DNA of 64,000 bases from Sandaracinaceae bacterium (GTDB lineage: Bacteria > Myxococcota_A > Polyangia > Polyangiales > Sandaracinaceae), in assembly GCA_019694315.1 (NCBI GenBank), contig JAIBCE010000005.1, forward strand, positions 3,487-67,486, read 5' to 3'. This document shows, piece by piece, positions 23,240-59,100 of this stretch (its first letter is position 1; the number at the start of each line of letters is the position of its first letter). A model generated the notes under the pieces. The model was not told where the DNA came from, did not search any database, and saw nothing but the letters and a program-made list of their open reading frames with translations. The position numbers and the translations under genes were made by a program.

Positions 23240-23582
23240 GGACGACCGGGATCGACCGCCACGCCGTTGGGCTCGCGAAGGGGTCGCGACGCGCGACGGC
23301 GCAGGCGATCGACACCGTGATGACGGCGACCTACTTCGAGGTGGGGCCGTCGGATCGTCGAGGATGGGCAGCGGGGGGCCGAACGTGCGGGCTACGGGAC
23401 GCTGCTCCTCGGTCTGCGAGCGGGGAACCCACCGGGTCTGGGACTTCGTCGTTTCGTCGTTGCCCGCGAGGTAGCTCGCCGTGCGATCGTCGGGGGACCG
23501 AGTGAGCACGCAATTCCACACCATCGGTCGCAGTCTCGTGTTGCTCGAGATCGGCACGCCGCTTCGCGCGCTCGATCAAGGC

Positions 23583-24365
23583 ATGAGCAAGCCCATCCTC
23601 TTCGAGCTCGAGGGACCGGACGGGCCTGCGCATTGGGTCGTCAAGCCTCGGAGTCTCGATCGGCGTGGCGGTGACGGTCTCGTGTGCGAGGTCGCCGCTG
23701 CGGACATCGCCGTCGCCTTGGGTCTCCGGGTTCCAGCGATGGGGATGCTGGAGTTCCCGAGCGTGCCGCTCGAGGTCGAGACCTCCGAGCTCGGCCATCG
23801 GGTCGCGGAGGTCTACCGACGAGACGCGGGCGGGACAGCGTTCTGCTCGCGCTTCATCGAGGGCGGCGTCCACGCGGTGAGAGGGATGTTCGACGACCTC
23901 CGCTCTGTGCCGCTCGAGATGCAGGAGGATGCCGTCCGACTCTTCGCCCTCGACGTGTTGCTCCGACACTACGATCGAAGACCCGGCAATCCGAACCTGC
24001 TCGTCCACGAGGATCGCCTCGTGGTCATCGACCACGGGCACGCGTTCCACGGCATCGAGCAGGTGACGGAAGAGGGGCTCTCGAAGTTCGCTGACACCGA
24101 CCAAGACCAGGCCGCGCTCGCCGACCACGTCTGCGCGTCGGTGGCGGCCCGCGATCGCTACGAACACGTGTTCGACGACGTCCTCGCCCGTGTTCGTGCC
24201 CTCGACGACACGACGCTCGACCGCCTCGCGTCGGCCTGGCCGGACGCGTTGGATCGCTCGCCTGACGGCACCCCCTCGGGTATGCGATCGTCCGTCGTCG
24301 CTGCCCTGCGAGCCAGGCGCGACGCGTTCCCGTCCCTCTTGAGGTCTGTCCGTGCCGCCCTCTAA
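23583..24365 (+). CDS. HipA-like / PI3-4-kinase-fold protein kinase
   Basis: ATG at 23583. Catalytic-loop-like LLRHYDRRPGNPNLLV and metal-binding-like VVIDHGHAF, as in the HipA_C family. Confidence 0.55.
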   Translation: MSKPILFELEGPDGPAHWVVKPRSLDRRGGDGLVCEVAAADIAVALGLRVPAMGMLEFPSVPLEVETSELGHRVAEVYRRDAGGTAFCSRFIEGGVHAVRGMFDDLRSVPLEMQEDAVRLFALDVLLRHYDRRPGNPNLLVHEDRLVVIDHGHAFHGIEQVTEEGLSKFADTDQDQAALADHVCASVAARDRYEHVFDDVLARVRALDDTTLDRLASAWPDALDRSPDGTPSGMRSSVVAALRARRDAFPSLLRSVRAAL

Positions 24366-25179
24366 AGCCGAATACCGGATCTTCTCCGCGAGCGCCGACC
24401 CCCTCGGGGAGGAGCGCTACCCGCTGGCGTTGGTCCACTGGGACGGGACGGAGCTCCGGTATGCGGCGCGTGATCGTGTGCCCAGCGCTCTGGAGAAGGA
24501 GGAGCGTGCGCTCGCTCGTGTTCTTCGCGCGATGCGTCGCCGTGTACGCGAGCTCCCGGCGACGCAGCTCGACATGGGCCTCGACACGATCTTCGACGTC
24601 CGCGCCGGTGATGGCGGGGCGACGGCGTGGTCGACGAAGCGGATCGCGATGACGCGTGACGCTGCGGATCACTTCTCGCGGCTCGTCTCGGACCTGCACC
24701 TCGCACAGCTCCGCGACGCGGCTTCGTCCATCGGGCGCGCCGAGGTGGTCGACGCGGTGCACACCCTCGGGACGCTGTTGGCGAAGACGCACCGGAACGT
24801 TCACCCCGATCACACGGTGCACGAGTTCGATCAGCTGCGATCGCCCATGTCCTGGCTCAACGGCTCCTGGGTGCACACGGTGCCCCTCGTCGTGTCGTCG
24901 ACCGTGGGCGCTCACGAGGCGGTCAGGAAGGTGGCGGCGACTCTCGAGCTCGCCGTGCCCCGCAAGCATCGCCTCGTCGTCGCGTACCCGACGCCGGCGG
25001 ACGACTCGGTCGGACGCGAGCTGCTGCGCGGCGTGGCTCATCTCGCGACGAACAATCCGCCGGAGGACGGCGACACGGCTCGCGTTCGGGGGGTCGCGCT
25101 TCCGCTCACGGCGGACGACGAGATCGACACGTCCGCGCTGCAGACGCTCGTGCTCGCCGAGCTTCGCACCGCGCCCTGA
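24352..25179 (+). CDS. DUF3037-like protein (tentative), partner of the HipA-like kinase
   Basis: The GTG at 24352 overlaps the kinase gene by 14 nt. The N-terminal YRIFSASADPLGEERYPLALVHWDG resembles the DUF3037 N-terminal pattern. Assigned from memory of the family and its known pairing with HipA-like kinases. Confidence 0.4.
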   Translation: MPPSKAEYRIFSASADPLGEERYPLALVHWDGTELRYAARDRVPSALEKEERALARVLRAMRRRVRELPATQLDMGLDTIFDVRAGDGGATAWSTKRIAMTRDAADHFSRLVSDLHLAQLRDAASSIGRAEVVDAVHTLGTLLAKTHRNVHPDHTVHEFDQLRSPMSWLNGSWVHTVPLVVSSTVGAHEAVRKVAATLELAVPRKHRLVVAYPTPADDSVGRELLRGVAHLATNNPPEDGDTARVRGVALPLTADDEIDTSALQTLVLAELRTAP

Positions 25180-25249
25180 TTCGTCGCCGTCCGCGGGTCG
25201 ATCTTCGCGCCGCGAAGCGTGGGGTTCGTGCGATCGTCCGGGCCGTCCG

Positions 25250-26698
25250 ATGACCACCACCAACGACATCGTTCAGAAGCTCTGGTCGCTCTGTCACGTC
25301 CTTCGGGACGATGGGATCACGTACCACCAGTACGTGACGGAGCTGACGTGGCTGCTCTTCCTCAAGATGGCCAAGGAGACGAACCGGGAGGAGCAGCTGC
25401 CCAAGGGGTATCGGTGGGATGACCTGACGCAGCTCGATGGGGTGCCGCTCCTCACGTTCTACCGGCAGCTCCTCCTGCACCTCGGCACGGCGTCGGGGCC
25501 GAAGGGGCCGTCGAAGCGGGTGCAGGCGATCTTCTCGAACGCGGCGACCTCCATGAAGGAGCCGCGGAACCTCAAGAAGCTCGTCACCGACATCGACGCC
25601 CTCGACTGGTACTCCGCCAAGAGCGAGGGCCTGGGCGACCTCTACGAAGGCCTGCTCGAGAAGAACGCGAGCGAGAAGAAGTCCGGCGCGGGGCAGTACT
25701 TCACGCCGCGGCCACTCATCGACGCGATGGTCGAGGTCGTCCAGCCGCAGCCCAAGGAGCGCGTCGAGGACCCGGCCGCGGGCACCGCGGGCTTCCTCAT
25801 CGCCGCGGACCGCTACATCAAGGCGCACTCGAACGACCTCTTCGATCTCGACGAGGCCACGGCGCGCTTCCAGCGGCAGAAAGCGTTCTACGGCGTCGAG
25901 CTCGTGCCCGACACGCACCGCCTCGCGCTCATGAACCTGCTCCTCCACGGCATCGACAGCGACCTCGAGCTCGGCGACGCGCTCTCGAACCTCGGCAAGG
26001 ACCTGCCCAAGGCGAACGTCATCCTCACGAACCCGCCCTTCGGCACCAAGAAGGGCGGAGGCCTGCCCACGCGCGATGACTTCACCTTCCCCACGAGCAA
26101 CAAGCAGCTCGCCTTCCTCCAGCACATCTACCGCGGCCTCGAGCCCGGCGGCCGCGCGGCGGTGGTGCTGCCCGACAACGTGCTCTTCGAGGAGAACGTT
26201 GGGACGAAGATCCGCGAGGACCTGATGGAGAAGTGCGATCTCCACACCATCCTCCGCCTGCCCACCGGCATCTTCTACGCGCAGGGCGTGAAGACGAACG
26301 TGCTCTTCTTCACGCGCGGCGAGCACGGCAAGGATCGCGGCCAGACCAAGGCCGTGTGGGTCTACGACATGCGCGCGAACATGCCGAGCTTCGGCAAGCG
26401 CACACCGCTGGGCCCCGAGCACTTCGAGCCGTTCATCAAGGCCTTCGGCAAGAACCCGTACGGCCAGAGCAAGCGCAAGGACGAGGGCGAGGAGGGCCGC
26501 TTCCGGAAGTTCACGCGCGACGAGATCAGGAAGCGCGGCGACAACCTCGACATCAGCTGGCTCAAAGACGAGAACGCGACCTCGCACGACGACCTCGGCG
26601 AGCCCGAGGAGATCGCCACCGAGATCATGACGAAGCTCCAGCTCGCCATGGACGAGATCGAGTCCCTCCAACGAGTGCTACGGGGGGAGGAGTCGTGA
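25250..26698 (+). CDS. hsdM: type I R-M N6-adenine DNA methyltransferase subunit
   Basis: ATG at 25250. HsdM_N-like IVQKLWSLCHVLRDDGI. SAM motif DPAAGTAGFL. Catalytic NPPFG. Confidence 0.9.
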   Translation: MTTTNDIVQKLWSLCHVLRDDGITYHQYVTELTWLLFLKMAKETNREEQLPKGYRWDDLTQLDGVPLLTFYRQLLLHLGTASGPKGPSKRVQAIFSNAATSMKEPRNLKKLVTDIDALDWYSAKSEGLGDLYEGLLEKNASEKKSGAGQYFTPRPLIDAMVEVVQPQPKERVEDPAAGTAGFLIAADRYIKAHSNDLFDLDEATARFQRQKAFYGVELVPDTHRLALMNLLLHGIDSDLELGDALSNLGKDLPKANVILTNPPFGTKKGGGLPTRDDFTFPTSNKQLAFLQHIYRGLEPGGRAAVVLPDNVLFEENVGTKIREDLMEKCDLHTILRLPTGIFYAQGVKTNVLFFTRGEHGKDRGQTKAVWVYDMRANMPSFGKRTPLGPEHFEPFIKAFGKNPYGQSKRKDEGEEGRFRKFTRDEIRKRGDNLDISWLKDENATSHDDLGEPEEIATEIMTKLQLAMDEIESLQRVLRGEES

Positions 26699-28387
26699 GC
26701 GACAGCTTCGAACTGCAGCACCACCCACTGAACATCGACTCCCCCCCAGAGGGGTGGCACGTGATGGCCATTCGCGCGGTGCTCACCGAGGCCCAACCCG
26801 GCTACGCGTCGGGGGGAGCATGGCCGAGACTCGTCAGGCCTCATTCACTTGCGTCCGATGAACGTGACCACGGACGGGGAGATCGATCTAACGGACGTTC
26901 GAAGCGTTGAGGCCACTGGGGACCAGCGCCGGATCGGACCTGGGGAGATCCTCTTCAACAACACCAACAGCCCTGCCCTCGTCGGCAAGACGGCGCTTGT
27001 TCGGAGCGGCCCCCTCCGGGCGTTCTCGAATCACATGACCCGGCTGGTTACGAGTCCGGACGTCGCGCCGGGCTTCTTGGCCTATCAGCTTCAGCACTTG
27101 TTCAAGTCGGGCTACTTTCGGCAGTTGTGCAAGAAGCACGTGAATCAGGCGAGCATCGCTACCACCACCCTCTTGGACTCCGTCCCCGTTCTGGTCCCCG
27201 ACAGGCCGGAACAGGATCGCATCGTCGCCAAGCTCGACGCGCTGCGGGCACGCAGTCGTGGCGCGAGGGAGGCGCTCGACGCGGTGCCCGCGCTGCTCGA
27301 CCGGCTGCGTCAGTCCATCCTCGCCGCCGCGTTCCGAGGCGACCTCACGGCCGACTGGCGCGAAGCGAACCCCGACGTCGAGCCCGCGTCCGAGCTCCTG
27401 AAGCGCATCCGCATCGAGCGCCGCAAGCGCTGGGAGGAGGCCGAGCTCGCGAAGATGGTCGCCAAGGGCAAGCCCCCCAAGGACGACCGCTGGAAGTCGA
27501 AGTACGTCGAGCCCGAGCCCGTCGACGAGAGCGACCTGCCGGAGTTGCCCGAGGGCTGGTGCTGGGCGAGCGTCGAGGGAGTGTGTGACCTGCAGCTTGG
27601 GCAGCAGCGTTCCCCAGAGCACGCTGCAGCCGAAGTGACTCTTCCCTACGTGCGCGCCGCGAACATCACCTGGACCGGGCTGGACCTCTCCGACGTGAAG
27701 GAGATGGGCTTCCCGGATCCCGAACGCTATCGTCTACGCGTCGGCGATGTCCTGCTCAGTGAGGCGTCCGGGAGCGCTACGGAAGTAGGAAAGCCAGCGA
27801 TCTGGCGCGGCGAGATCCCCAATTGCTGCTACCAGAAGACGCTTCTGCGTGCTCGACCGTTCGAATCCACGATGGGGAGTGAATGGCTCCATCTGTGTTT
27901 CCTCGCTGACGCCATCCTCGGGCGATTTGCAGCGATGGCTCCAGGAGTCGGCATCCTGCATCTCACAGCTGACCGAATGAGCTCGTGGCCAGTTCCGATG
28001 GCGCCGGTCGACGAGCAGACACGCCTCGTCGAAAGCGTCCGAAGCGCTTTGGCTACTGTGGCCGCGTTGGAAGAGACCGCCGCCAACCTCGGGGCGTCGA
28101 CCGCGGCTCTTGACGCGTCGGCGCTCGCGAAGGCCTTCCGCGGCGAGCTGCTGAGTCCGCTATCGCGCGAAGAGGAGGCGTACTCGCTCGGGGGCGCGGA
28201 CGAGGCCGAGGTCCTTGCGTTCGTCCGTCGCGTCATCGAGGAGGACGGTGACATCGAAAGTGGGCTCGTCCACAGTCTCCACATGGTCGGGGCTGCTGGA
28301 GCGGATAAGGTCGAGGCCGAGCGGCGTCGGTTCTTCAAGGAGCGGGGGATGCGGGTTCCGCGGATGAAGGGCGGCGCACAGGAGTGA
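26695..28387 (+). pseudogene. hsdS: type I R-M specificity subunit, reading frame broken at a G6 tract (26811-26816)
   Basis: The GTG at 26695 overlaps the hsdM stop (GTGA). The N-terminal 39 codons (..PPEGWHVMAIRAVLTEAQPGYASG) continue in the -1 frame as EHGRDSSGLIHLRPMNVTTDGEIDL... if one G is removed. The rest is a typical two-TRD HsdS with a central coiled coil. Confidence 0.8.
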
Positions 28388-29587: not shown

Positions 29588-30193
29588 ATGCGCGAGCTCC
29601 CGGTCACCGACCTCACCTCGCTCGTGAACGGCAAGCGCGTGGACGCGACCGTGCTCGCGGGCCTGCGCGGCAGCGTCGGGTTCCGCAACCAGGTCACCGA
29701 CGTCGTGCAGCTCACTGCCATCTTCCGTCGGCACTGGGAGAGCGTGCGCGCGACGACGCCGGTCACGATCGACGACCTCGAGCGCGCCGAGACGCTCGCG
29801 ACGAAGCTCACGCAGCTGCTCGGGATGCGCGAGCAAGGCAGCCTCGAGGCGTCGGGCGTCGGCGAGATGCGCCAGCGCGCGTTCTCGAAGTTCGTCCACA
29901 CCTACGATCAGCTGCGCCGCGCGATGACCTTCCTCCGCTGGGACGAGGGCGACGTCGACTCCGTGATCCCCTCGCTCTGGGCCGGTCGCGGTGGCCGCGG
30001 CAAGCGCACCGAGGTCGAGGTCGCCAAGGACGAGACCAAGAGTGGCGAGACCAAGAGTGGCGAGACCAAGAGTGGCGAGACCAAGAGTGGCGAGACCAAG
30101 AAGGCAGAGCCCAAGAGTGGCGAGCCCAAGAGTGACGAGCCGCCGATGGACGACCTCCGGGGTCTTCCGCCGCCGTTCATCGAGGGGGTCTGA
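29588..30193 (+). CDS. hypothetical protein with C-terminal ETKSG pentapeptide repeats
   Basis: ATG at 29588 with AAGGAG 9 nt upstream. 201 aa, with a K/E-rich repetitive tail. Confidence 0.55.
   Translation: MRELPVTDLTSLVNGKRVDATVLAGLRGSVGFRNQVTDVVQLTAIFRRHWESVRATTPVTIDDLERAETLATKLTQLLGMREQGSLEASGVGEMRQRAFSKFVHTYDQLRRAMTFLRWDEGDVDSVIPSLWAGRGGRGKRTEVEVAKDETKSGETKSGETKSGETKSGETKKAEPKSGEPKSDEPPMDDLRGLPPPFIEGV
30032..30091 (+). repeat. perfect 15-nt tandem repeat x4 (GAGACCAAGAGTGGC), followed by degenerate copies to ~30140
   Basis: Read directly from the sequence. In frame; encodes (ETKSG)4 and then ETKKAEPKSGEPKSDEP. Confidence 0.9.
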
Positions 30194-31311: not shown

Positions 31312-32400
<1,089 letters not shown>

Positions 32401-32468
32401 GGCGGCGATGGTACCCACAAAGCGCTCCGCCTCGTCATGCCTCCGTGGCGCTTCGTGTCCGACTTCAG

Positions 32469-34495
32469 CTCGCGTCTGATCTGCCCCTCGAGCCGCGCTC
32501 GGATCCGCAGAGCGCGACGACCCCGTGCCTCACGGACGCACCGTCGAAGGCGCGAGCCAGTCCGTTCCTGCCCTCGGATCCGCAGAGCGCGACGACCCCG
32601 TGCCTCACGGACGCACCGTCGAAGGCGCGAGCCAGTCTCTCCCTGCTTCCGTCGAACAGGAACATGGAGGCACGCGCCGCGATGGAGGCTCGCGTGAGCC
32701 TCTGCATCCTCGCGTCTGATCCGAATCTCGGATCCGCAGAGCGCGACGACCCCGTGCCTCGCGGGACGCACCGTCGAAGGCGCGAGCCAGTCCGTTCCTG
32801 CTCCCATCGAACAGGAACCTGGAGGCACGCGCCGCGGCGGGGGCTCGCGTGAGCCTCGGCATCGTCGCGTCTGATCCGAATCTCGGATCCGCAGAGCGCG
32901 ACGACCCCGTGCCTCGCGGGACGCATCCTCAAAGGCGCGAGCCAGTCCGTTCTTGCTCCACATCGAACAGGAACATGGAGGTACGCGCCGCGACGGAGGC
33001 TCGCGTGAGCCTCGGCATGCTCGCGTCTGATCTGCTCCTCGATCGGCCCTCGGATCCGCAGAGCGCGACCACCCCGTGCCTCACGGACGCACCGTCGAGG
33101 GCGCGAGCCAGTCCGTTCCTGCTCCCATCGAACAGGAACCTGGAGGTACGCGCCGCGGCGGGGGCTCGCGTGAGCCTCGGCATGCTCGCGTCTGATCTGC
33201 TCCTCGATCCGCAGAGCGCGACCACCCCGTGCCTCACGGACGCACCGTCGGAGGCGCGAGCCAGTCCCTCCCTGCTTCCATCGAACAGGAACATGGAGGT
33301 ACGCACCGCGACGGGGCTCGCGTGAGCCTCTGCATCGTCGCGTCTGCTCGGACTCTCGATCCGCAGAGCGCGACGACCCCGTGCCTCACGGACGCACCGT
33401 CCAAGGCGCGAGCCAGTCCGCTCCTGCTCCCATCGAACAGGAACCTGGAGGTACGCGCCGCGACGGAGGCTCGCGTGAGCCTCGGCATGCTCGCGTCTGA
33501 TCTGCCCCCCGATCCGCCCTCGGATCCGCAGAGCGCGACCACCCCGTGCCTCACGGAGGCACCGTCGAGGGCGCGAGCCAGTCCCTCCCTGCTTCCATCG
33601 AACAGGAACCTGGAGGTACGCGCCGCGATGGAGGCTCGCGTGAGCCTCTGCATCCTCGCGTCTGATCTGCCCCCCGATCCGCCCTCGGATCCGCAGAGCG
33701 CGACGACCCCGTGCCTCACGGACGCACCGTCGGAGGCGCGAGCCAGTCCCTCCCTGCTTCCATCGAACAGGAACATGGAGGTACGCACCGCGACGGGGCT
33801 CGCGTGAGCCTCTGCATCGTCGCGTCTGCTCGGACTCTCGATCCGCAGAGCGCGACCACCCCGTGCCTCACGGACGCACCGTCGAGGGCGCGAGCCAGTC
33901 CGTTCTTGCTCCACATCGAACAGGAACCTGGAGGTACGCGCCGCGGCGGGGGCTCGCGTGAGCCTCGGCATCCTCGCGTCTGATCTGCCCCCCGATCCGC
34001 CCTCGGATCCGCAGAGCGCGACGACCCCGTGCCTCACGGACGCACCGTCGAGGGCGCGAGCCAGTCCGTTCTTGCTCCACATCGAACAGGAACATGGAGG
34101 CACGCGCCGCGATGGAGGCTCGCGTGAGCCTCGGCATGCTCGCGTCTGATCTGCTCCTCGATCGGCCCTCGGATCCGCAGAGCGCGACGACCCCGTGCCT
34201 CACGGACGCACCGTCGAGGGCGCGAGCCAGTCCGTTCTTGCTCCAGATCGAGCGACAAGATGGAGGTACGCGCCGCGGCGGGGGCTCGCGTGAGCCTCGG
34301 CATGCTCGCGTCTGATCTGCTCCTCGATCGGCCCTCGGATCCGCAGAGCGCGACGACCCCGTGCCTCACGGACGCACCGTCGAGGGCGCGAGCCAGTCCG
34401 TTCCTGCTTCCATCGAACAGGAACCTGGAGGCACGCGCCGCGACGGAGGCTCGCGTGAGCCTCGGCATCCTCGCGTCTGATCTGCCCCCCGGCAT
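32469..34495 (+). repeat. head-to-tail tandem array: 12 full units (152-167 nt) plus one 75-nt truncated unit of a hairpin-rich, apparently non-coding sequence
   Basis: The core GATCCGCAGAGCGCGAC starts at 32502, 32577, 32731, 32886, 33053, 33206, 33358, 33523, 33688, 33840, 34006, 34172 and 34338. Each full unit carries three or more conserved stem-loops. The strand is suggested by G-U-compatible substitutions only. Confidence 0.95.
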
Positions 34496-34544
34496 GGCCT
34501 CAGGTGTCGCTTGCCGCAGCCCAGCGCGCGGCGAAGATCCGCGC

Positions 34545-35117
34545 ATGGCCGACGCGCCCACCTACCGTGCCTTCGAGGATCGCGCCGCGCTCGATCGCTG
34601 GCTCGCGCGACACCACGCGAGCGAGACCGAGCTCTGGGTGCGCGTGTTCAAGAAGGGCGCGGGGACGCCCTCGGTCACGTGGGAAGACCTCGTCCTCGCG
34701 GGCCTCACGTGGGGCTGGATCGACAGCCAGAAGCGCTCGCTCGACGAGGTGTCGTTCCTCCAGCGCATGACGCCGCGACGGCCCAGATCGATCTGGTCGA
34801 AGAAGAACTGCGAGCACGCCGAGCGCCTGATCGCCGAGGGCCGGATGAAGCCGCCCGGCCTCGCGCACGTGGAGGCCGCGAAGAAGGACGGCCGCTGGGA
34901 GCAGGCCTACGCGGGCGCGAGCCAGATGGTGATCCCCGACGACTTCCTCGCGGCCCTCGCGAAGAGCCCGAAGGCGAAGGCCTTCTACGCGACCCTCGAT
35001 CGCACGAACCTCTACGCGATCTACCACCGGCTCCACACCGCGAAGAAGCCCGAGACCCGCGCGGCCCGCATCGAGCGCATCGTCGCCCAGCTCGCCCGCA
35101 GCGAGCGCTTCCACTGA
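34545..35117 (+). CDS. YdeI/OmpD-associated (DUF1801-like) family protein
   Basis: ATG at 34545, 190 aa. Pattern ...ELWVRVFKKGAGTPSVTWEDLVLAGLTWGWIDSQKRSLDE...FYATLDRTNLYAIYHRLHTAKKPETRAARIERIV is typical of this family. Confidence 0.6.
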   Translation: MADAPTYRAFEDRAALDRWLARHHASETELWVRVFKKGAGTPSVTWEDLVLAGLTWGWIDSQKRSLDEVSFLQRMTPRRPRSIWSKKNCEHAERLIAEGRMKPPGLAHVEAAKKDGRWEQAYAGASQMVIPDDFLAALAKSPKAKAFYATLDRTNLYAIYHRLHTAKKPETRAARIERIVAQLARSERFH

Positions 35118-35713
35118 CCCAGCTCGCTGGGGCGCAGAGACTCAGCATTTCCCGCGCCTCCGGCGCTCGAGGCGGGGGCCCGACCCCCGCACCCCCATCG
35201 CTCGTCGTCGCTTCGCTCCTCCAGCGCTCGCGCCTCAAGGGGGAGCTTCGCTCCCCCGCCGGCCGGCTCCCCCATCAGATCAGAGCGTCGTCTTGGATTG
35301 TTTCTCGCTCTCTCAGTTTCTGCGCGGCGCAGGCGCCGCGCGTCGGGGGCTTCACCCCCGAACCCCGTACGACCATTCGATCCCGAGAAACGATTGTTTC
35401 TCGGTCTCTCAGTGTTTCTCGCGCCTTCGGCGCGGCAGGGGGGAGCAACTCCCCCCAATCCCCCACTCGACGCTCCCCAAGCCTCGCTTTCTCGCGCGCT
35501 CCTGGGGTTGCTGCGCAACCCCGCCGCGTGGCGTCCCCAACGGCGATTTTTTCTCCATCTCTCAGAGACCGAGAGACAATCGACTCGAGAGCCGAAGGGC
35601 CGCGGGGGCGGGGGGTCCAGGGCGAGTTACGCAGGCCGAAGGCCGAGTATGTCTGAGCATCGGACCCCCTCCCCCGCGGCCCGATTCGAAGTCGGAGATT
35701 TCGTCTCCATCTC
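35118..35713. repeat. cluster of GC-hairpin intergenic repeat elements (dispersed family)
   Basis: Hairpins GGGGGAGC-TTC-GCTCCCCC, CCGAGAAAC-GATT-GTTTCTCGG, GGGGGGAG-CAA-CTCCCCCC and GGGGTTGC-TGC-GCAACCCC. Recurring GTTTCTCG.TCTCTCAG motif. 35350-35412 is repeated in inverted orientation at 42185-42247. Confidence 0.65.
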
Positions 35714-37651
35714 TCAGAACAGGATGTTGATCGGCTCGAGGTTCAGGCCTGCGGGGGTCGCGTAGCTGGTGAAGCTGCCGAGGCCGTACGCGATGATCCC
35801 GAAGCCATCCTCGGCCGTCATCGAGTGCGTGCCGCCAGCGAGCGGCACCACGCCCACCTCGCTCGGACCGATCGTCGTGAACGGCACCGACACCGGTGTT
35901 CCGTCGACGAGGACCGTGAGGCCCGGCGGGCGCGTGACCAGCACGAAATTCTGCCCGTTCGTGCCGGGGTTGTACGAGGTCGGCAGGATGAACGTGTAGT
36001 CCTGACGGAACTGCTCGGAGGGCACGAGCAGCGTCATGCCCGGATCGCCGCGTGCCGCCTCGGGCGTGGAGGCGAACTGCCCGCGGAGATACTGCGCGAC
36101 CATCACGCCGTGGCTGGCCGTGACGTGGAAGGGTCGCGACGCCTCGAACTCGATGTACTGGCCCGCGGCGAGCGTGCCGCTGCCGCCGGCCCCCTCGATC
36201 GTCACCTCGGTGTCGCTCACGCCCGCGATCACGCGAACCACGTTGTCCGCCATGATCGAGCCATCACCCATGGGCGCGCCCACGTACTCGCGGCCCAGCG
36301 TCTCGATCGGAGGCATCTGCTCCTCGATGTGATCGCAGGCCTGCGCGTAGTACGGGACATACGCGCACGTATGTCCGCCGAACACCGCGACCGCCTGGTC
36401 CGCGGTGATGCGCGTGCCGGTGAGGTCGTAGTCGGTCTCGTTGCAGCCGAAGCGCCCGCCGTCGCTCATGGTCACCTCGCGGTAGCCAGGACGACCCGAG
36501 GCACAGTCGGGAGGCACGTCGGCGAGCACGTGCGCGACCTCCCCCTGCTGGAGGGTGATCACGAACGAGCGTCCACGCGCGGTGCGCGGCACGCGGCCAT
36601 CGCTCGAGGCCGCGATGTTCGCGGTCGTCGAGATCTGCACGGTGGTGGTGCCCGGCGCGATGCCGACGATCGCGACGTAGCCAGGCTGCGCGAACGGATC
36701 CGACGTGCTGCCGCCGAACGGATCGGCCGACACGTCTGCGATCGAGAGAGGCACGTAGGCCGCCGCCACGTAGCGCCCCGTCAGCACGTGCGCCGGCAGG
36801 AGCAGCGAGGCGTCGTTGGTGTAGGAGAACGTGCCGCCGTTCTCGTACTCGAACGGGTTGAACTGGCTCACGATCACCGGCACGTCCGAGAGCAGGCGAT
36901 ACGCGCCGCTCTGGATGAAGCTCGACCAGCCCGCGCTGGGCACGCCGAACGACTGCCCGTCGACCCACGGCAGCACCACGTCGCGGATGCCCTGCGCATC
37001 GACGGTGCCGCTCCACGTCATGGTCGTGCCGCGCATCACGCGCACGTTCGCGGCCACCGCGTTCGGGTTGGCGATCACGACGCGGAAGTCGAACGTCGTG
37101 GGGCTCAGCTCCTGCGTGTTCGCGAGCGGCACGGGCCAGTACTCGCAGCCCACGTTCGAGCTCGTGCGCTCCGCGTCGGCGCACATGTCCGCGCAGTAGC
37201 CGTCGCCACCACACTCGACCGACCAGTCGCCACAGTCGCGCCCGTAGTTGTAGCCGCTGCCGTCGGCGTTGCAGACCTCCGACACGGTGCCGTTGCAGCG
37301 TCGCTCTCCCGGTCGACACGTGACGCAGCCGAGGCGCGTGTCGCACTGCTCGGGGCAGACGCTCTCGTTCGTGCGCGTCTGGCCGTCGGCGCCGCACACG
37401 TAGAGCGTCGTGCCGTAGCAGCCTTGTTGGCCCGGCGTGCAGCGGAACGTGAAGGGCGCATCCACGCCGATCGGCGTGCCAGTGTCGATGCCGGGCTCGC
37501 CGCCACCATCGGGTCGCGTCACGCGTCGCTCTCCGCAGCCGACACCCGCCATGAGCGTGAGCAGGGCGAGCGAGAGCGCGAGGACGTAGGCCGGGCTGGT
37601 CTCGAGACGTGCACCGCGGCCGAGAGACGAGGGGGAGAAGCGAGTCGCCAT
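35714..37651 (-). CDS. lipoprotein with Cys-rich N-terminus and IgGFc-binding-protein-N-terminal-like beta-helix domain (tentative)
   Basis: ATG at 37651. Lipobox LMAGVGC. 645 aa. Segments such as GCEYWPVPLAN...FRVVIANPN...ANVRV resemble PF17517-type proteins (assigned from memory). Confidence 0.45.
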   Translation of the reverse strand: MATRFSPSSLGRGARLETSPAYVLALSLALLTLMAGVGCGERRVTRPDGGGEPGIDTGTPIGVDAPFTFRCTPGQQGCYGTTLYVCGADGQTRTNESVCPEQCDTRLGCVTCRPGERRCNGTVSEVCNADGSGYNYGRDCGDWSVECGGDGYCADMCADAERTSSNVGCEYWPVPLANTQELSPTTFDFRVVIANPNAVAANVRVMRGTTMTWSGTVDAQGIRDVVLPWVDGQSFGVPSAGWSSFIQSGAYRLLSDVPVIVSQFNPFEYENGGTFSYTNDASLLLPAHVLTGRYVAAAYVPLSIADVSADPFGGSTSDPFAQPGYVAIVGIAPGTTTVQISTTANIAASSDGRVPRTARGRSFVITLQQGEVAHVLADVPPDCASGRPGYREVTMSDGGRFGCNETDYDLTGTRITADQAVAVFGGHTCAYVPYYAQACDHIEEQMPPIETLGREYVGAPMGDGSIMADNVVRVIAGVSDTEVTIEGAGGSGTLAAGQYIEFEASRPFHVTASHGVMVAQYLRGQFASTPEAARGDPGMTLLVPSEQFRQDYTFILPTSYNPGTNGQNFVLVTRPPGLTVLVDGTPVSVPFTTIGPSEVGVVPLAGGTHSMTAEDGFGIIAYGLGSFTSYATPAGLNLEPINILF

Positions 37652-42116: not shown

Positions 42117-42290
42117 TCTACTACTTCCGAGAATCTTCGCGCGGCGCGAAGATTCGGAAGTTTGGGCTGCGGGCTTCGCCCGCGCTGGGAGACCGAGAAA
42201 CAACCGTTTCTCGGGATCGAATGGTCGTACGGGGTTCGGGGGTGAAGGTCCCGACCCCGCCGAAGGCGCGAGGACCGCGCGCGAATGGCA
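42117..42290. repeat. intergenic hairpin repeat element (same family as 35118-35713)
   Basis: 42185-42247 is the reverse complement of 35350-35412 (63 nt, ~2 mismatches). An additional palindrome is CCGAGAATCTTCGCGC/GCGCGAAGATTCGG at 42129-42160. Confidence 0.7.
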
Positions 42291-43934: not shown

Positions 43935-44247
43935 GTTTCCTGGGTCGAGGGACCTCTGGCCCCTCGAGCTCCCCGTCGCTCACTCCGGCGCTACGCGCCT
44001 CCGCATCGCTCCTGCTCCAGGGGTGAGCTGCGCTCACCCCGCCGCAGGGCGCCCCGGATCGATTCTTTCTCGGTCCCTGAGTCTTCTGGGTCGAGGGACC
44101 TCCTGCACCTCCTGCCCCTCGAGCTCCCCGTCGCTCACCTCGTCGCTTCGCTCCTCGCCATCGCTCCCGCTCCAGGGGTGAGCTGCGCTCACCCCGCCGC
44201 GTGGCGCCCCGACGACTCTCGCGGTCCTTGAGTCTCCGGGGTCGAGG
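43931..44247. repeat. ~146-150 nt tandem duplication (2 copies plus the start of a third) of a hairpin repeat element
   Basis: CTGAGT.T.C.GGGTCGAGG starts at 43931, 44077 and 44227. Each copy contains the hairpin GGGGTGAGC-TGC-GCTCACCCC. Confidence 0.75.
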
Positions 44248-52399: not shown

Positions 52400-55300
52400 T
52401 CACGGCGTCAGGGCGACGAGCTGATCGACGCCGCCGGCGCTCGTCAGCAGCAGCCCGCCCAGGCTCGTCGTGCCGCCCAGCGTTCCGGCGAGTGCGCTGG
52501 CCCCGTCCGCGCGCAGGGCGCTCGAGAAGCTCAGCACATCGACGCTGACCGGGCCGAGCGACGTCAGGGAGATCAGGCCGCCGGTGTCCGCAGTCATCCA
52601 GACCACGTTCGGTGTGTAGAACGCGTCGGGACCCACGGGCCTCCCTCCGAACGACAGCGAGCCGCGCGCGCTGAAGATCGTGTGGATACGGCCCATCCCG
52701 TCGACCTGGAAGCGCTGCACGCCACCCCACGTCTCGCCCGTGCCCGTGTGCCCGACCACCCAGCCGATCGCGCCACCCACATAGCCGACGCCCGCGAGGA
52801 AGCCACCATCGCCCCCGCTGGTCAGCGTCGTGCCGTTGACCGTCGTCGAGCTGAAGAACTCCCCCGCGAACACCCACTTGGAGGTGTCGCTGGCGTGGAC
52901 ATCCGTCACGCGCTCGTTCGACGCGGTGGCCACGGGGCAGGCGCTTCCGCAACCGATCCCGCTGCTGCAGCGCGCGGCCCAGCCATCGAGGCCACCGCCC
53001 GCGGGCATCATCGTCCCGCCGAGCATCCACGCGCCCGCGGAGTACTGCCCTCCGAGAAAGACGTCGTGATCGAATTCGCGCACGTCGAGGGCGTCCACCG
53101 CGATCGACGCGGGGCCCGAGATCGCGACGATCGAGACGGGGCTGCCGTCCGCGAGCGCCAGGCGCGCCACCCAGCCATCGTCACTGGCGGTGATCGACAT
53201 GCCCGGCGTGAGCTCCAGATCGCTCTGCGTGTATCCGCCCGCCACCACGTGGCCGTTGAAGACGTCGATGTCGAGCGCGCGGCCCTCGGCCGCCATCGCG
53301 GACGGAAGGACCCGTGACCAGAGCGCATGGCCATCCGCCGTGTCGAGCGCCGTGACGAAAGGACTCTGCGTCGCGAGCGCCGGACCGACGGTGCCACCCA
53401 CGAGCAGATCGCCCTCTCCGAAGCAGGTCCCCACCACCACCACGGTGCTCCCCGAGATCGCCAGTCGGTACGCGCTCACATCGCCCATCACGCTCGCCTC
53501 GATGGTGGTCGCCCACCGCACCGTCGAGAGCGACGCGTCGAACGACAACACGTCCACGCCGAGGCCGGGGGCCGTCACGTCCACACCGTCCACGTGGAGC
53601 GCACCGGCGAAGGTCGTGACCACATAGACGTTGCCTGCGCCATCCACGGCCACATCCAGCAGGCCGAGCGGAACCGAGTCGTCCGACGAGCCTCCCCACG
53701 TGAAGGCGCCCGTCACGGCCGGGCACGTCCCCATCCTCTCGCAGCCATCGCCCCCCGCGCCGAGATCGTGATTGCAGTCCACGAATCCCCCCGCGCAGAG
53801 GGGCGCGCTGCAGACTCCGAGGTTGCATGTGGCCATCGTGTGCGGCTCTTGGAGGCAGTCCCTCGTGCACGTGCCGCAGTGACTCGGATCGTTCGCGGGG
53901 ATCTCGCAGCCATCCAAGGGGTCGCCGTTGCAGTCCTGCGCACCTCCCAGACACGACGCGATCGCGCACGTGCCCGTGGCGCAGGTCCACGACGCACCAG
54001 GCCCCATGCACGGGTGGCCGCACGTGCCGCAGTCGAGGACCGTCCGACCGTCCGTCTCACACCCATCGTCAGGCAGCGAATTGCAGTCGAGCATGCCACC
54101 GCTGCAGCTCTCGACGACACACGCCCCCGCGCTGCACGACCAGCCCGCGGCGAATCCAGTGCACTCGCGCACGCACGAGCCGCAGTGAGAGACATCGCGC
54201 GACGTGTCGGTCTCGCAGCTGCCATCGTGGTCGCAGTCGGCGAGTGGCGCGACGCAGCCGTCCGCTCGCTCGCACCGCCGAGACACGGGATTGCAGTGCG
54301 CGTCCGCGCCGCACGTGTCCCCGCACGAGGCACAGTCGAGGTCGGTGCCGAGCATCGTCTCGCACCCGTCGTCCAGCGTCGTGTTGCAGCTCTCGTAGCC
54401 CTCGAGACACGCGACACCACACGATCCGTCGATGCAGAGAGGCACGGTCGCGGCGCCGCCCGCGGGGCAGACGCGCCCGCAGACGCCACAGCCCATCACG
54501 TCGCTCGAGAGATCCGTCTCACACCCGTTGGTCGTCAGGTGATCGCAGTCGGCCTGTGGGGCGGTGCAGCGCAGCACGCTCGTGGCCCGGCAGCTCCCCG
54601 CGATGCACGTGAGCGCACCACACACCGAGGCGGGCACCTCCTCGTCGATGCGCGCGTCGCAGTCCTCGTCGGTGCCATTGCAGGCCTCGATCTGGCTCGG
54701 GTGGCGGTCGACGTTCGCGTCGTCGCAGTCCCCTGCGCGCTCGGTGTACCCGACGGCGGCGCCACATCCCACCAGCGTCCCTCCCGTCGCGTTCCCCCAT
54801 CCGTCCGCGTCAGCATCCCGATAGAAGAGCGTGGAGAACACCCCCTCGTCCGTGGCGCGATCACAGTCGTTGTCACGACCATCACAGATCTCGCTGGCTC
54901 CACCGCCCGTCGCCGCATCCCGATCGTCGCAGTCGGCGCGGTCGGGGGCAGGGGCAGGCGTGCATCGGGCATCGGGTCGTCCGTCGAGATCGTCGTCCTC
55001 GGTGTCTCCAGGGCCGATCTCGAAGTCCGGGCGACCATTGCAGTCGTCGTCGAGGCCATTGCACTGCTCGCGCTGGCCGGGATGACGCGCCGCGTCCGCG
55101 TCGTCGCAGTCGGTGCCGAGGAGCGAGAATCCTGGCCCCGGCACCGCGCACGACTCCGTCGCGCGGCTCGGATCCCCGAATCCATCACCGTCCTCGTCCA
55201 GATACCAGCGGACGATCACGGGCGCGTCGGCGGGGTCGGCGACTCCATCACAGTCGTTGTCGATCCCATCGCACGCCTCGAAGAGCGTGGGGCTCCGCAT

Positions 55301-56083
55301 GGCGCTCGCGTCGTCGCAGTCGTCGCCGAGCGCGACGTAGCCGCCCGCGCCCGGACACGCCATGCGGGACGCGGCGGGATCACCGTGCCCGTCTCCGTCG
55401 AGATCGCGGAACACGAGCGCGAGCACGTCCTCGTCGATCGATCCGTCGCAGTCGTCGTCGAGCCCGTCGCAGACCTCGGTCCCCGCCGGGCTCGCGCCGC
55501 GCACCGCGTCGTTGCAGTCGTCGCCGCACGCGCTGCCGTTGCAGCAGGCGCTGTCGACGAAGCCATCGCCGTCGCCGTCTCGGCCCCCGAGCGTGCTGGG
55601 ATCACAGTCCTCGTCCGCGCCCTCGGCATCGCACAGCTCCGCTGCGCCAGGGTGAACGGAGATCTCGGCATCGTCGCAGTCATCGCCCAGAGGCACGCCG
55701 CGCGCGTCCACACAGCTCGACGCTCCGTGGCCATCGGCGTCCTCGTCGGGCACGCGGTGCACACAGGCGCGGAGCTCCTCCGAGCAGCCATCCGCCGTGC
55801 ACGCGAGGTGATCATCGCAGTCGAGGGCCTCGCCTGCGACGCATCGGCCGGAGGCGCAACGTGCCTGTCCATTGCATGCCAGTCCGTCCTCACAGTCGCC
55901 GTCTATCAGACACTCGGGGGCATCGAGACCGGGAGCGTCGGGGACGGCCGCGTCCGGAGGCTCGCCGCCCCCGCAGCCGCCGAGAACCCCCGCGGCGAGG
56001 GTCAGCGCGAGGAACCCGCGAAACGAGGACACCCGAGAAGGGCGGCCCCATCCCCTCAGCCAGCGCGACGGACTCCGGTTCAT
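52400..56083 (-). CDS. giant secreted Cys-rich protein: MopE-type metal-binding motif repeats, CG.CG..C repeats, beta-propeller-like C-terminus (tentative)
   Basis: ATG at 56083. Lipoprotein-like signal ...AAGVLGGC. About 7 copies of D.DGDG.....C.G.DCDD......PG..E.C(D/N)G.D(N/D)DCDG, multiple GCE(T)...CG.CG..C modules, and repetitive G/V/D-rich strands at the C-terminus. Confidence 0.75.
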   Translation of the reverse strand: MNRSPSRWLRGWGRPSRVSSFRGFLALTLAAGVLGGCGGGEPPDAAVPDAPGLDAPECLIDGDCEDGLACNGQARCASGRCVAGEALDCDDHLACTADGCSEELRACVHRVPDEDADGHGASSCVDARGVPLGDDCDDAEISVHPGAAELCDAEGADEDCDPSTLGGRDGDGDGFVDSACCNGSACGDDCNDAVRGASPAGTEVCDGLDDDCDGSIDEDVLALVFRDLDGDGHGDPAASRMACPGAGGYVALGDDCDDASAMRSPTLFEACDGIDNDCDGVADPADAPVIVRWYLDEDGDGFGDPSRATESCAVPGPGFSLLGTDCDDADAARHPGQREQCNGLDDDCNGRPDFEIGPGDTEDDDLDGRPDARCTPAPAPDRADCDDRDAATGGGASEICDGRDNDCDRATDEGVFSTLFYRDADADGWGNATGGTLVGCGAAVGYTERAGDCDDANVDRHPSQIEACNGTDEDCDARIDEEVPASVCGALTCIAGSCRATSVLRCTAPQADCDHLTTNGCETDLSSDVMGCGVCGRVCPAGGAATVPLCIDGSCGVACLEGYESCNTTLDDGCETMLGTDLDCASCGDTCGADAHCNPVSRRCERADGCVAPLADCDHDGSCETDTSRDVSHCGSCVRECTGFAAGWSCSAGACVVESCSGGMLDCNSLPDDGCETDGRTVLDCGTCGHPCMGPGASWTCATGTCAIASCLGGAQDCNGDPLDGCEIPANDPSHCGTCTRDCLQEPHTMATCNLGVCSAPLCAGGFVDCNHDLGAGGDGCERMGTCPAVTGAFTWGGSSDDSVPLGLLDVAVDGAGNVYVVTTFAGALHVDGVDVTAPGLGVDVLSFDASLSTVRWATTIEASVMGDVSAYRLAISGSTVVVVGTCFGEGDLLVGGTVGPALATQSPFVTALDTADGHALWSRVLPSAMAAEGRALDIDVFNGHVVAGGYTQSDLELTPGMSITASDDGWVARLALADGSPVSIVAISGPASIAVDALDVREFDHDVFLGGQYSAGAWMLGGTMMPAGGGLDGWAARCSSGIGCGSACPVATASNERVTDVHASDTSKWVFAGEFFSSTTVNGTTLTSGGDGGFLAGVGYVGGAIGWVVGHTGTGETWGGVQRFQVDGMGRIHTIFSARGSLSFGGRPVGPDAFYTPNVVWMTADTGGLISLTSLGPVSVDVLSFSSALRADGASALAGTLGGTTSLGGLLLTSAGGVDQLVALTP

Positions 56084-56120
56084 CCCGACCCTCACCCCGA
56101 CCCCGACTCTCGAGGTCGAA

Positions 56121-59100
56121 TCACATGATGCTCATCCCGCTACAGCGCACGTATGCGCCATTCGTGTAGGCTGGCGCCCAGCCCACGCCGAGGCCCGTCA
56201 GCACCGCCGGCGACGCCGGACAGCCCTGCGGTCCGAACGCCACACCTCCCGATCCCCCTCGCGCGGATGTCCACGACCCGACGAGGAAGCCCCAGGTGTA
56301 CGAGCCCGGGCTCGGCGACAGGACGGTGATCGGCGCGCAGTAGACCTGGAACTGGTCCATGTCATCCCCGACGCGCCCCGCGATCTGCGTCACGAACTGA
56401 TTGGCCGGGCAGTAGTCTACGTACGGAGTACCGCTCGAATCGCCCACTGGGGCTGCCGGAGATGCGCCTCCAGCGAAGACGACCGGATACGTGTACATCG
56501 CACCGCCGGAGTCGGTGGTGATCGCGATCGGCGCGCAGATCGGCTGGAGCTGATCGATGAGCGCGCCCGAGTGCCCCGCGATGCCCACCATCGCCTGTCC
56601 TGCCGGACAGTCGGTGTCGTAGAAGGGGCCTGTTCCGTTGGCGGCGCCGCTCGTGACCGAGCCCAACTGCAGCGCGATGCCTGTCCAGGTCAGCGTGGTC
56701 GAGGCAGAGCCACCAGGGCTGGCCGAGACGGTGAAGGTCGAGCTGGCAGGCCCGAGCGCGCTCGGATTCACCGACATGAACATCGTGCAGGAGGCCCCGG
56801 GCGCCAGCGTGCCGAAGCACGTGGCGGTCCCGAAACTCACGTCCCCACCGTGCGGCCCCGACGCACTGTAGGTCATCGACCCCGTGGGGATCGTACCGGG
56901 GTTCGAGATCGTGAGCGTCACCTGCCCGCTGTCCGAGCCCACCGCCACGGCCGGGTAGGCGATGGTCGTCGGCGAGACGGTGATGGCCAGTGAGCCCGTG
57001 CCGTTCATGACGGTGGCGACCGTGCCACCCGGCGCGCCACTCACCGTGAGCGTGGCAGAGCGGGCGCCAGCCGCATTGGGGCCGAAGTACACCGTGACCG
57101 TGCAATTGCCGGCCGCGGGCACCGAGGCGCCCGTGCAGGTGTTGCCCATGGTCTGGAAGTCGGCGGGATTCGCGCCCGTGATCGTCACCGACAGCGGCCC
57201 TGTCGCGATGGAGCCGCCGTTCGTGACCACGAAGCTCTGCGGCGCGCTGAGACCGCCGATGGTCATACCCCCGAAGTTGTGAGTGGGGGTGGGCGTCATC
57301 GAGATGGGCAGAGAGCCAGCGCCCGTGAGGGCCACGTCCACCGCGCCACCGGGCGCCCCCTGCACATGGAGCGTCGCCGCGCGCGCGCCGGCCATCGCGG
57401 GCTGGAACGTCACCTGGATCTGGCAATTGCCACCCACCGAGAGAGACGCCGCCGCACAGGTGTTCGTGCCGATCACGAAGTCGCCGGGGTTCGCGCCCGT
57501 CATGGTGACGGCGAGCGCGCCCGTGGCGATCGTGCCTGGATTCGAGATCGTGAAGGTCTGTGGCGCCGTGCTCAGTCCCACGGTCTGCGTCGGAAAGGCC
57601 GCCGACGCGGGGGACGAGGCGATCGGCAGAGAGCCCGTCCCGTTCAGTGTCGTGGTGGACGTGCCGCCCGGGACACCCGACACGCTCAGTGTCGCGGTCC
57701 GTGCGCCCGCCACGGTCGGGCTGAATCGCACCGAGACCGTGCAGGTCCCCGAGGGCGCGACCATCGAGCCCGCACAGGTGTTGGTGACGATCCCGAACTC
57801 ACTCGGGTTGGCCCCGCCCAGCATGACGCTCAGCGCGCCCGTCGTGAGGGTGCCCGGGTTCGACACCGTGAACGTCTGCGGTGCGCTGTTCGCGCCCAGC
57901 GTCACGCCGCCGAAGTTGTGAGTCGTCGGTGCCGTCGTGATGGGGGCGGAGCCCGTGGCCATGAGCGGCGCCGTCGTGGTGCCACCGAGCGTCGCGACCA
58001 CACGCAACGTCGCCGTGCGGGTCCCCGTGGCCCCCGGCGTCACACCCACGTTGACCGTACACATCGCGCCCGCCGCCAGCGTCGTGCCCGAGCACGGATC
58101 CGTGAGCGTGAAGTCGGCCGCGTTCGGGCCGACGATCGACACCGTGAGCGTGCCCGCACCCACCGTGCCTGGATTGCGGATCGCGAACGGCGCGGCAGCG
58201 ATCGGCTGACCGACGGTCGATGCGCCGTAGTCCCGACTCGTCGGTAGGGTGGAGATGAGACCCGTGCCCGTGAGCGTGGTGGCGGCCGTCGCGCCCGGCC
58301 TCGCGCTCGCCAGGAGCGTCGCGCCGCGTGGCCCGGTCGAGGTCGGCGAGAACGTGACGATCATCGAGCACGAGGCGGATGGAGCCAGCGTCCGCCCGAT
58401 ACAGTCGTCGGACGTGATGGCGAACTCCGCCGCGTCTGCGCCATCCACCCACGTGTCGATTCTCCCCGACACGGAGCCCCCGAGATTCCTGAGTGTGAAG
58501 AACCCGGGACCGCTGCTCGAAAGCGCTGCCACGCTCCCGAAGGGGTATGTCGCAGGGGCGAAGTCGAGCAGTGCGCAGGAGCCGGTGGTCTCGCAGCCAT
58601 CGCCGCCCATCACCCCGAGATCGCCATTGCAGTCGAGTCGACCCATCGCACAGACCGGTGCAGAGCACACGCCGAGCGAGCAACTCGGCGCCACCGTACC
58701 TGGCTCGCGGGTGCACACACGCCCACACACCCCACAATTCGACGGATCGCCGTCGATGTCGATCTCACAGCCGTTGCCTGCCGCTCCATCGCAGTCGTCG
58801 GAGCCGGCCAGGCAGCCCACGACCTGGCACGCGCTCGACGCGCACGCCCAGAGCGCCTGGTGCCCGGCGCACGCGGTCGCGCACCTGCCGCAGTGATCGA
58901 CGTCGTTCGAGGTGTCGACCTCGCAGCCCGTGGCGTCGAGTCCGTCGCAGTCGTCGGTGGTGCCGACGCAGCTCGCCACGCGGCAGCTTCCGCCCACGCA
59001 GCTCCAGTTGGCGCTGTGACCCGTGCATGGCGCGCCGCACGAACCGCACGACGCCACGGTGGTGTCGAGATCGGTCTCGCAGCTCCCGTTCGAGTCGCAG

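Follow-up and report, generated by a model that had tools for sequence, protein, structure and literature searches.

What occupies the gap between two divergent genes of a Sandaracinaceae genome (NCBI GenBank assembly GCA_019694315.1, contig JAIBCE010000005.1): a decayed gene, a string of RNA modules, a set of protein-binding sites or a repeat that persists as DNA? The element in question is a head-to-tail repeat array on the + strand at 32469-34495 of the 64,000-nucleotide (nt) stretch analyzed here, which we call the window. It consists of a leading partial tail and linker, one internally deleted unit and 12 full units, and it is one locus of a small repeat family that sits at unrelated intergenic sites in Sandaracinus-like myxobacteria. 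The explanation that we favor, tentatively and at somewhat less than an even chance, is an interspersed family of non-coding tandem-repeat DNA that is restricted to one lineage, the Sandaracinaceae (Myxococcota), and propagates at the DNA level. Judged against known systems, its organization would best be read as similar to that of minisatellites or mycobacterial interspersed repetitive units (MIRUs), and its unit as quasi-palindromic and of the size of miniature inverted-repeat transposable elements (MITEs) or enterobacterial repetitive intergenic consensus (ERIC) elements.

The array and its dispersed relatives

Thirteen exact copies of a core, GATCCGCAGAGCGCGAC, lie between 32502 and 34338, all on the + strand, at spacings of 75, 154, 155, 167, 153, 152, 165, 165, 152, 166, 166 and 166 nt. 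In 100 dinucleotide-preserving shuffles the same core occurs 0.22 times on average, and none of the 100 reaches 13. Tandem Repeats Finder reports a period of 166 (9.9 copies, 87% matches) and a period of 470 (4.0 copies, 90%). The original prediction had given this copy number and these spacings and had described the gap between the divergent glycosyltransferase and YdeI/OmdA-like genes as filled by the array, all of which is borne out; no further copy of the unit is present elsewhere in the 64-kb window. Its non-coding call is upheld as well, by unit lengths that are not multiples of 3, by flat GC content over codon positions and by variation that is spread evenly over them. The flat GC content holds for all three codon positions in every frame of every unit, with the flanking genes at 0.63/0.36/0.95 and 0.65/0.50/0.95.

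Because gene callers place spurious open reading frames (ORFs) across such arrays, relatives were sought by querying protein databases with the unit translated in six frames and then with a 289-amino-acid (aa) minus-strand ORF of the window. The queries brought up four database proteins that translate related arrays, and these led to four further loci (L101, L102, L118 and L119). These hypothetical proteins (P0001, P0002, P0123 and P0124) translate the non-coding repeat in various frames and strands and are therefore probably false gene calls. HMMER over 1.84 billion representative proteins gave three matches, and a further search with a one-frame translation returned P0001 alone.

Three of the five loci, counting the window, come from one metagenome (JGI 3300040800): L101, with at least 5 units following a 179-aa ORF in the same direction; L118, with 2 units (160 nt) flanked by a 113-aa ORF and a NuoF-like gene that share the direction of the array; and L119, with 8.5 units between a divergently oriented Fer2_4/FAD oxidoreductase gene and 186-aa ORF. 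The fourth relative, L102 (ENA ERZ27248705), has 2.5 units and adjoins, in mid-unit, the end of an IS21-family insertion sequence (IS) element encoding IstB. That element spans 98-1080 of its contig, and its repeat-rich end, finishing ...GATCA, adjoins the apical-loop region of a unit; we read it as probably inserted into the array. In L101, the 179-aa ORF ends within the first partial repeat unit, and both contig ends (1-80 and 1466-1490) are Illumina adapter sequence, which makes it an adapter-contaminated assembly record.

All five loci are intergenic, and the units of the other arrays are 81-92% identical to window unit 11. The proteins that flank the four relatives have no homologue in the window, and the flanks are mutually unrelated. 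Nucleotide searches added no member: two metagenome-contig scans and one viral scan with two-block patterns gave no match, in a metagenome collection that does not hold the JGI contigs, and neither did plasmids and phages (blastn, distant mode). A genome-collection scan with the bare 17-mer core gave at least 99 single chance matches, and none of those listed is unit-like beyond ~20 nt. The family is thus rare in the public data searched.

Relatives of the window itself show how the array varies. The close relative L001, a contig of 195 kb from assembly GCA_046351195.1, matches 22 kb of the window at 99.3-99.7% identity, yet carries only 2.5 units: unit 1, an exact recombinant of 5' unit 2 and 3' unit 12, and unit 13. 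Recombination between units may truly have deleted or expanded part of the array, or short-read assembly may have collapsed it, and the 2.5-unit version probably illustrates how such loci collapse in short-read metagenome-assembled genomes (MAGs). The array is absent from all 16 loci with DNA (L103-L117 and L120) that represent five orthologue types of the flanking glycosyltransferase (98, 98, 96, 95 and 90% aa identity), and the repeat is therefore not ancestral to that gene's surroundings. From these comparisons, the array would be a recent arrival at the window locus.

Several observations argue for a repeat that propagates as DNA: copy numbers that differ between arrays, unrelated intergenic sites, mosaic and self-complementary units, blocky conservation, an IS insertion that is tolerated, absence from related loci, and the presence in the window of other intergenic repeat families unrelated to this one. 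Under such a scheme, arrays would grow, shrink and shuffle through unequal recombination, slippage and gene conversion between units, and the element would propagate and persist as DNA in permissive sites between or upstream of promoters, probably altering promoter spacing and local DNA structure only incidentally; it would not be a series of separate structured-RNA genes. The invariant blocks described below may be needed for propagation or for the binding of some host factor.

A number of points weigh against this explanation. The three loci of one metagenome need not share one genome and may thus not be interspersed within a single one, and the difference in copy number between L001 and the window may be an assembly collapse. 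Neither the window nor ~950 kb of other DNA, almost none of it from relevant genomes, contains a solitary copy. Array edges lie at different phases of the unit, no target-site duplication is seen at them and nothing observed points to a mechanism of dispersal. Lastly, the blocky conservation of the unit suggests a function that a DNA repeat leaves unnamed.

The closest organizational parallel is with the MIRUs of Mycobacterium tuberculosis, tandem repeats of 46-101 bp found at 41 loci (PMC3914561). As in MIRU and other variable-number tandem-repeat systems, non-coding head-to-tail repeats occupy several intergenic loci and differ in copy number per locus. Unlike MIRUs, the window units are 152-167 nt, or 2-3 times longer, are strongly self-complementary and hold a nested 12-nt subrepeat; they have no sequence relation to MIRUs and belong to another phylum, and for them single-genome interspersion and strain-level variation in copy number are no more than possible. 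ERIC, Correia, bcr1 and YPAL-type elements are imperfect palindromes with inverted-repeat ends that lie in intergenic DNA of one lineage, and the ~140-nt core of the unit is likewise imperfectly palindromic with inverted-repeat ends and limited to intergenic DNA and a single lineage. Unlike the present family, which is seen here only in head-to-tail arrays with ragged edges and no target duplication, those elements are as a rule solitary, can lie in either orientation and are frequently bordered by target duplications. Eukaryotic satellite DNA offers a further likeness, in that its units of ~150-170 bp also run head to tail, form mosaics of variants, exchange sequence with one another and hint at duplications of several units, but it extends over kilobases to megabases instead of 2 kb, and the window array has no regular higher-order repeat and is bacterial and intergenic.

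Unit architecture and probable exchange between units

The unit consists of a core of ~140 nt, made of mutually complementary GC-rich blocks, followed by one or two copies of a pyrimidine-rich 12-nt subrepeat. Unit 11 serves as the example, with all features on the + strand. Its head block CAGAGCGCGA (34012-34021), nearly invariant in the 27 aligned units, is followed by a small hairpin, CCGTG-CCT-CACGG (34027-34039), intact or wobble-paired in 26 of 27 units. The block GGCGCGAGCCAG (34053-34064) follows, invariant in all 27 units from the five loci and the longest invariant run. Next come the variable apical hairpin GTTCYTG-loop-CAGGAAC (34068-34093), which pairs less well in several units because of mismatches (variants CTCCCTG and CTTTCAG), and the palindrome GAGGCTC-GCGT-GAGCCTC (34115-34132), which is in all window units and has its 5' arm replaced in 7 of the 27 family units. 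The core closes with the tail block TCGCGTCTG (34140-34148), complementary to the head CAGAGCGCGA of the same or the following unit, so that the two are inverted repeats, and the unit ends in a linker (34149-34171) of one or two copies of the subrepeat GATCYGCYCCTC. The + strand of the linker is rich in pyrimidines in all arrays of the family.

The stem-loops listed in the original prediction are thus present in the window units, with one reservation: the nested CGACG...CGTCG stem is not maintained, given that a G/C polymorphism in its 5' arm is uncompensated. Linker lengths were also given differently there, as 8, 13 and 19 nt; we find that 14-15 nt or 26 nt separate CGCGTCTG from CCGCAGAG. 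The two length classes of the unit, 152-155 nt and 165-167 nt, arise because one or two copies of GATCYGCYCCTC are present.

Along the array, the leading partial unit (32469-32501, +) matches unit positions 133-166, that is, a tail CTCGCGTCTG with a two-subrepeat linker, and the same tail-plus-linker segment is found at both array ends. Unit 1 (32502-32576, +) is shortened to 75 nt by an internal deletion, and its first 70 nt are 100% identical to unit 2 (Tandem Repeats Finder: period 75, 100% matches), which makes the deletion a recent event. Units 2-12 (32577-34337, +), of 152-167 nt each by the spacing of the repeat core, start at 32577, 32731, 32886, 33053, 33206, 33358, 33523, 33688, 33840, 34006 and 34172; they are 80-99% identical in pairs and form a mosaic of a few variant cassettes. 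The linker of the last unit, unit 13 (34338-34495, +), passes into unique DNA ~50 nt upstream of the ATG of the ydeI-like gene.

Two further proposals about the array hold in part. A 482-nt, three-unit period had been proposed, and the 151 nt at 33224-33374 do have an exact copy 482 nt further on, but a regular higher-order repeat is unsupported. Units 6 and 9 are 99% identical and their neighbors only 87% and 95% alike, and identity at an offset of 482 (0.40) is not above that at 166 (0.43); the proposed period is weak and rests on this one near-identical pair. GATC sites are enriched as described, but only 1.5-fold, at 15.3 per kb in the array against 10.0 per kb elsewhere in the window, where their density is itself high.

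The alignment of 27 full units from five loci is a succession of variable segments and of blocks that are invariant or nearly so, namely CGCAGAGCGCGAC, GCCTCAC-GGA, GGCGCGAGCCAG, ATGGAGG-ACGCGCC, GCGTGAGCCTC-GCAT and TCGCGTCTG. Variable columns are clustered, with 55 runs where permutations give 73 +/- 6 (p = 0.001), and the longest stretch without variation spans 12 columns (p = 0.007); on this pattern the blocks look constrained. Mean identity within the arrays of at least four units is 92% for the window, 88% for L101 and 86% for L119, and mean identity between arrays is 79-88%. Many polymorphisms, transversions included, segregate inside several arrays at once, and the units are therefore not all recent copies. 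Variant cassettes appear to have been shuffled among units.

Alternatives to a DNA-level repeat

A possible, though unlikely, alternative is that the array is a tandem series of structured-RNA modules: a transcribed region, most plausibly of the + strand, with a multi-hairpin domain per unit, made of a head/tail closing stem and two or three hairpins, and with CU-rich linkers between the domains, which would act as a cis leader, as a protein or RNA sponge, or as a precursor that is cut to unit-length small RNAs (sRNAs). Several features suit it. Every conserved block can pair with another; variable positions lie mostly in predicted loops, junctions and linkers; on the + strand, several recurrent polymorphisms are of the Y-opposite-G or R-opposite-U kind; and linkers are + strand pyrimidine-rich in all arrays. 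All 26 units tested fold better than dinucleotide shuffles, and in L118, the sole orientation-informative locus, the + strand runs with both flanking genes. The points on variable positions, polymorphisms, linkers and orientation are not compelling statistically. A broader rule, that arrays are always co-oriented with the downstream gene (3 of 3 loci), was rejected, given that a divergent intergenic region satisfies either orientation.

The array is richer in inverted repeats than expected by chance. Folding is equally favorable on the two strands, with a mean z of -2.48 (+) and -2.57 (-), and nhmmer also detects the reverse strand of units, which together mark the unit as a quasi-palindrome at the DNA level. 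With 16 units, RNAalifold predicts the head/tail closing stem, the small hairpin, the long hairpin and the GAGGCTC/GAGCCTC hairpin. With 27 units, the consensus shifts and ATGGAGG-ACGCG now pairs with CGCGTGAGCCTC. The covariation term is -0.38 for 16 units and -0.24 for 27, with two and zero compensatory pairs, respectively. The original prediction had seen variation that preserves structure in a plus-strand RNA, a claim that is not supported, given that the covariation measures of the 16 units are reached by 175-241 of 500 shuffles. The double change that it noted in copy 12 is real but confined to a single unit. The power of such tests is low because the stems are nearly invariant. The GAGGCTC hairpin has a CCACCGT-like sequence in place of its 5' arm in 7 of 27 units, which keep the 3' arm GAGCCTC, and the closing stem loses its A:U pair in 5 units, uncompensated. 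Both observations count against a fixed fold. Mutual information over all column pairs gives no convincing complementary covariation; its signal consists of linkage within multi-nucleotide variants and of array-specific haplotypes.

In line with the original prediction, the array matches no Rfam family: the window as a whole has no match at gathering thresholds, and a search of 33800-34560 that admitted E values up to 10 gave chance-level matches alone. It is not a transfer RNA, none being found, and not a clustered regularly interspaced short palindromic repeat (CRISPR) array, given that whole units repeat and unique spacers are absent; no cas genes are among the Pfam families on record for the genes around the array. 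A scan for sigma-70-like promoters and intrinsic-terminator-like sites in 32300-34700, which did not cover myxobacterial or alternative-sigma promoters, found neither. In two divergent loci ~50-130 nt are left beside each gene, and hence the promoters may lie outside the array and leave it untranscribed. In the NsiR1 locus of heterocystous cyanobacteria, Anabaena has 12 tandem copies (PMC4030482), each repeat with its own promoter and a 60-nt sRNA, at a conserved position near hetF (PMC4030482). The window array resembles it in having about a dozen direct repeats in one intergenic region but differs in that the scan just described found no promoter- or terminator-like site and in that the neighbors are not conserved. 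Type III toxin-antitoxin loci carry ToxI-type repeats of 34-36 nt in 2.8-5.5 copies, with a terminator and a ToxN-family endoribonuclease (PMC5086642). As with ToxI or antiQ, tandem repeats lie directly upstream of a same-strand protein gene; unlike them, the units are 152-167 nt, no terminator is found and the downstream genes are YdeI/OmdA-like, NuoF-like or uncharacterized, with no match to PADLOC defense-system models among them. A retron msr/msd was also considered and rejected, with no reverse transcriptase among the Pfam families on record in 22 kb and no Rfam msr match. Sigma-54, CsrA-type GGA, parS, attC and diversity-generating-retroelement-like features, compared by eye, do not fit the spacing or conservation. 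The boldest version, which we regard as speculative and rather unlikely, is that the arrays are long repetitive non-coding RNAs of ~150-nt multi-hairpin modules joined by CU-rich linkers, with several loci per Sandaracinaceae genome and copy number as a tunable dose. If true, long modular repeat RNA would be a new bacterial class that serves as a scaffold, a sponge or a precursor of unit-length RNAs.

Distinctly unlikely, to our judgment, is a multi-site protein-binding DNA array, in which the blocks would be operators for a nucleoid-associated, regulatory or recombination protein. The 13 units would then place dozens of candidate sites between two divergent promoters, among them GAGGCTC-N4-GAGCCTC, GTGC-N9-GCAC and the head and tail arms around a 14- or 26-nt spacer. 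It would account for conservation by sequence block even where the pairing partner is gone (GAGCCTC is kept when its complementary arm is replaced), for a self-complementarity that is symmetric between strands and for the clustering of conserved columns, and two of the three fully flanked arrays lie upstream of both divergent genes. However, no candidate protein co-occurs with the arrays, whose neighbors differ at every locus; units of 152-167 nt and a 12-nt linker step break helical phase; the IS21 insertion is tolerated; and no resemblance to an operator, parS or iteron is established.

We consider it quite improbable that the unit is a self-targeting, MITE-like non-autonomous element served by a transposase encoded elsewhere, which would be a special case of the DNA-repeat explanation. 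It would have imperfect terminal inverted repeats, GATC..CAGAGCGCGAC and GTCGCGTCTGATC, with subterminal hairpins, and would form head-to-tail arrays because the target is recreated at the element's end. The head CAGAGCGCGA and tail TCGCGTCTG are indeed inverted repeats, the family is found in unrelated contexts and is absent from orthologous loci, and CTGCCCC flanks the L118 array on both sides. In length, the ~140-nt core is also comparable to ERIC, Correia and other palindromic elements of the MITE-like kind. However, the lack of a solitary copy in the window and the ~950 kb of other DNA, almost none of it from relevant genomes, speaks against such an element, as do left edges that in three of four cases start with partial units of differing length, the lack of a clear target-site duplication, the lack of a transposase among the Pfam families on record for the genes called in 22 kb around the array, and IS21 ends in L102 that are unlike the unit ends.

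A decayed repeat-protein gene, or a small ORF repeated in each unit, is very unlikely and already effectively refuted. The most gene-like feature is a minus-strand ATG, read as GCAT on the + strand, which never varies among the 27 units and is preceded by the purine-rich linker; gene callers have placed ORFs across four arrays, and third-position GC over the first 19 codons is 0.83. However, when read from this ATG, 9 of 27 units have in-frame stops in the first 45 codons, and a 1-nt indel, polymorphic in all five arrays, splits the downstream part between two frames. Variable sites over the first 19 codons number 10/11/9 at codon positions 1/2/3 and are not concentrated at third positions, second-position GC is 0.58 versus 0.36-0.50 in real genes, and the predicted ORFs have no Pfam domain on record.

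Finally, spurious expansion of a short repeat during assembly is scarcely credible: the 2.5 units of L001 would suit it, but the 13 units differ by discrete variants common to independent arrays from other samples, the 8.5-unit L119 array was assembled independently with both flanks, and the middle unit of L001 is the expected product of collapse or of recombination between units 2 and 12.

Neighborhood, other repeats and significance

Both neighbors of the window array point away from it. The glycosyltransferase gene (Glyco_trans_1_3; 31312-32400, -) has its ATG 69 nt off and the gene for the YdeI/OmdA-like protein (34545-35117, +) its ATG ~50 nt off. NCBI entries for the glycosyltransferase come from MAGs of Sandaracinaceae and Sandaracinus sp. 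At the DNA level, 31312-32417 is 92-94% identical to the copies in L103-L117 and L120, with entirely different sequence on both flanks. In those orthologue loci, a type II secretion system ATPase or a short-chain dehydrogenase lies upstream of the glycosyltransferase, and none of their neighbor genes is present in the window. L107, which holds the 95% orthologue, and the window have in common only the glycosyltransferase and abhydrolase genes, at a distance of ~5.5 kb in L107 and ~15 kb in the window, and L103 and L104 carry an additional 200-nt partial copy of the glycosyltransferase 3' end 4 kb downstream. The glycosyltransferase gene seems to have moved or been duplicated in the lineage of the window. 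A defense-type cluster lies 4-9 kb from the array (window ~23481-28387; L001 533-5439) and contains a HipA_2-like gene that matches the PADLOC candidate PDC-M66A, a 275-aa ORF, and a type I restriction-modification methyltransferase with its specificity subunit.

The intergenic DNA of the window genome carries several small repeat families. An unrelated tandem repeat at 43952-44247 (155 nt x 1.9, 85% matches) lies between convergent genes, carries the hairpin GGGGTGAGC-TGC-GCTCACCCC and has partial copies (35193-35272 and 35482-35542) in the intergenic DNA that immediately follows the ydeI-like gene. A 71-nt element at 35342-35412 has a 94% identical inverted copy 7 kb away, at 42185-42255, and the motif TCTC..TCTCTCAG occurs four times in 35280-35720. 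Other repeats lie in genes: a 15-nt repeat (x 7.3, 30031-30139) runs in-frame inside a called 229-aa gene with a faint GETHR match, and over ~8 kb (54650-62525) diverged direct repeats of 81-300 nt, 60-78% identical and with GTCGTCGCAGTC-like motifs, look by eye as if they lie inside large repeat-protein genes.

The new fact beyond the original prediction is that the array belongs to a small family of dispersed loci. If the DNA-repeat explanation is true, this is a previously undescribed repeat family for the Myxococcota, which joins a MIRU-like organization to a long, ERIC/MITE-type palindromic unit. Short-read MAGs collapse such loci, which also attract spurious ORF calls, as in the four database 'proteins', and the arrays could serve in strain typing. 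The blocky conservation of the family, despite a unit divergence of 8-20%, suggests a sequence requirement.

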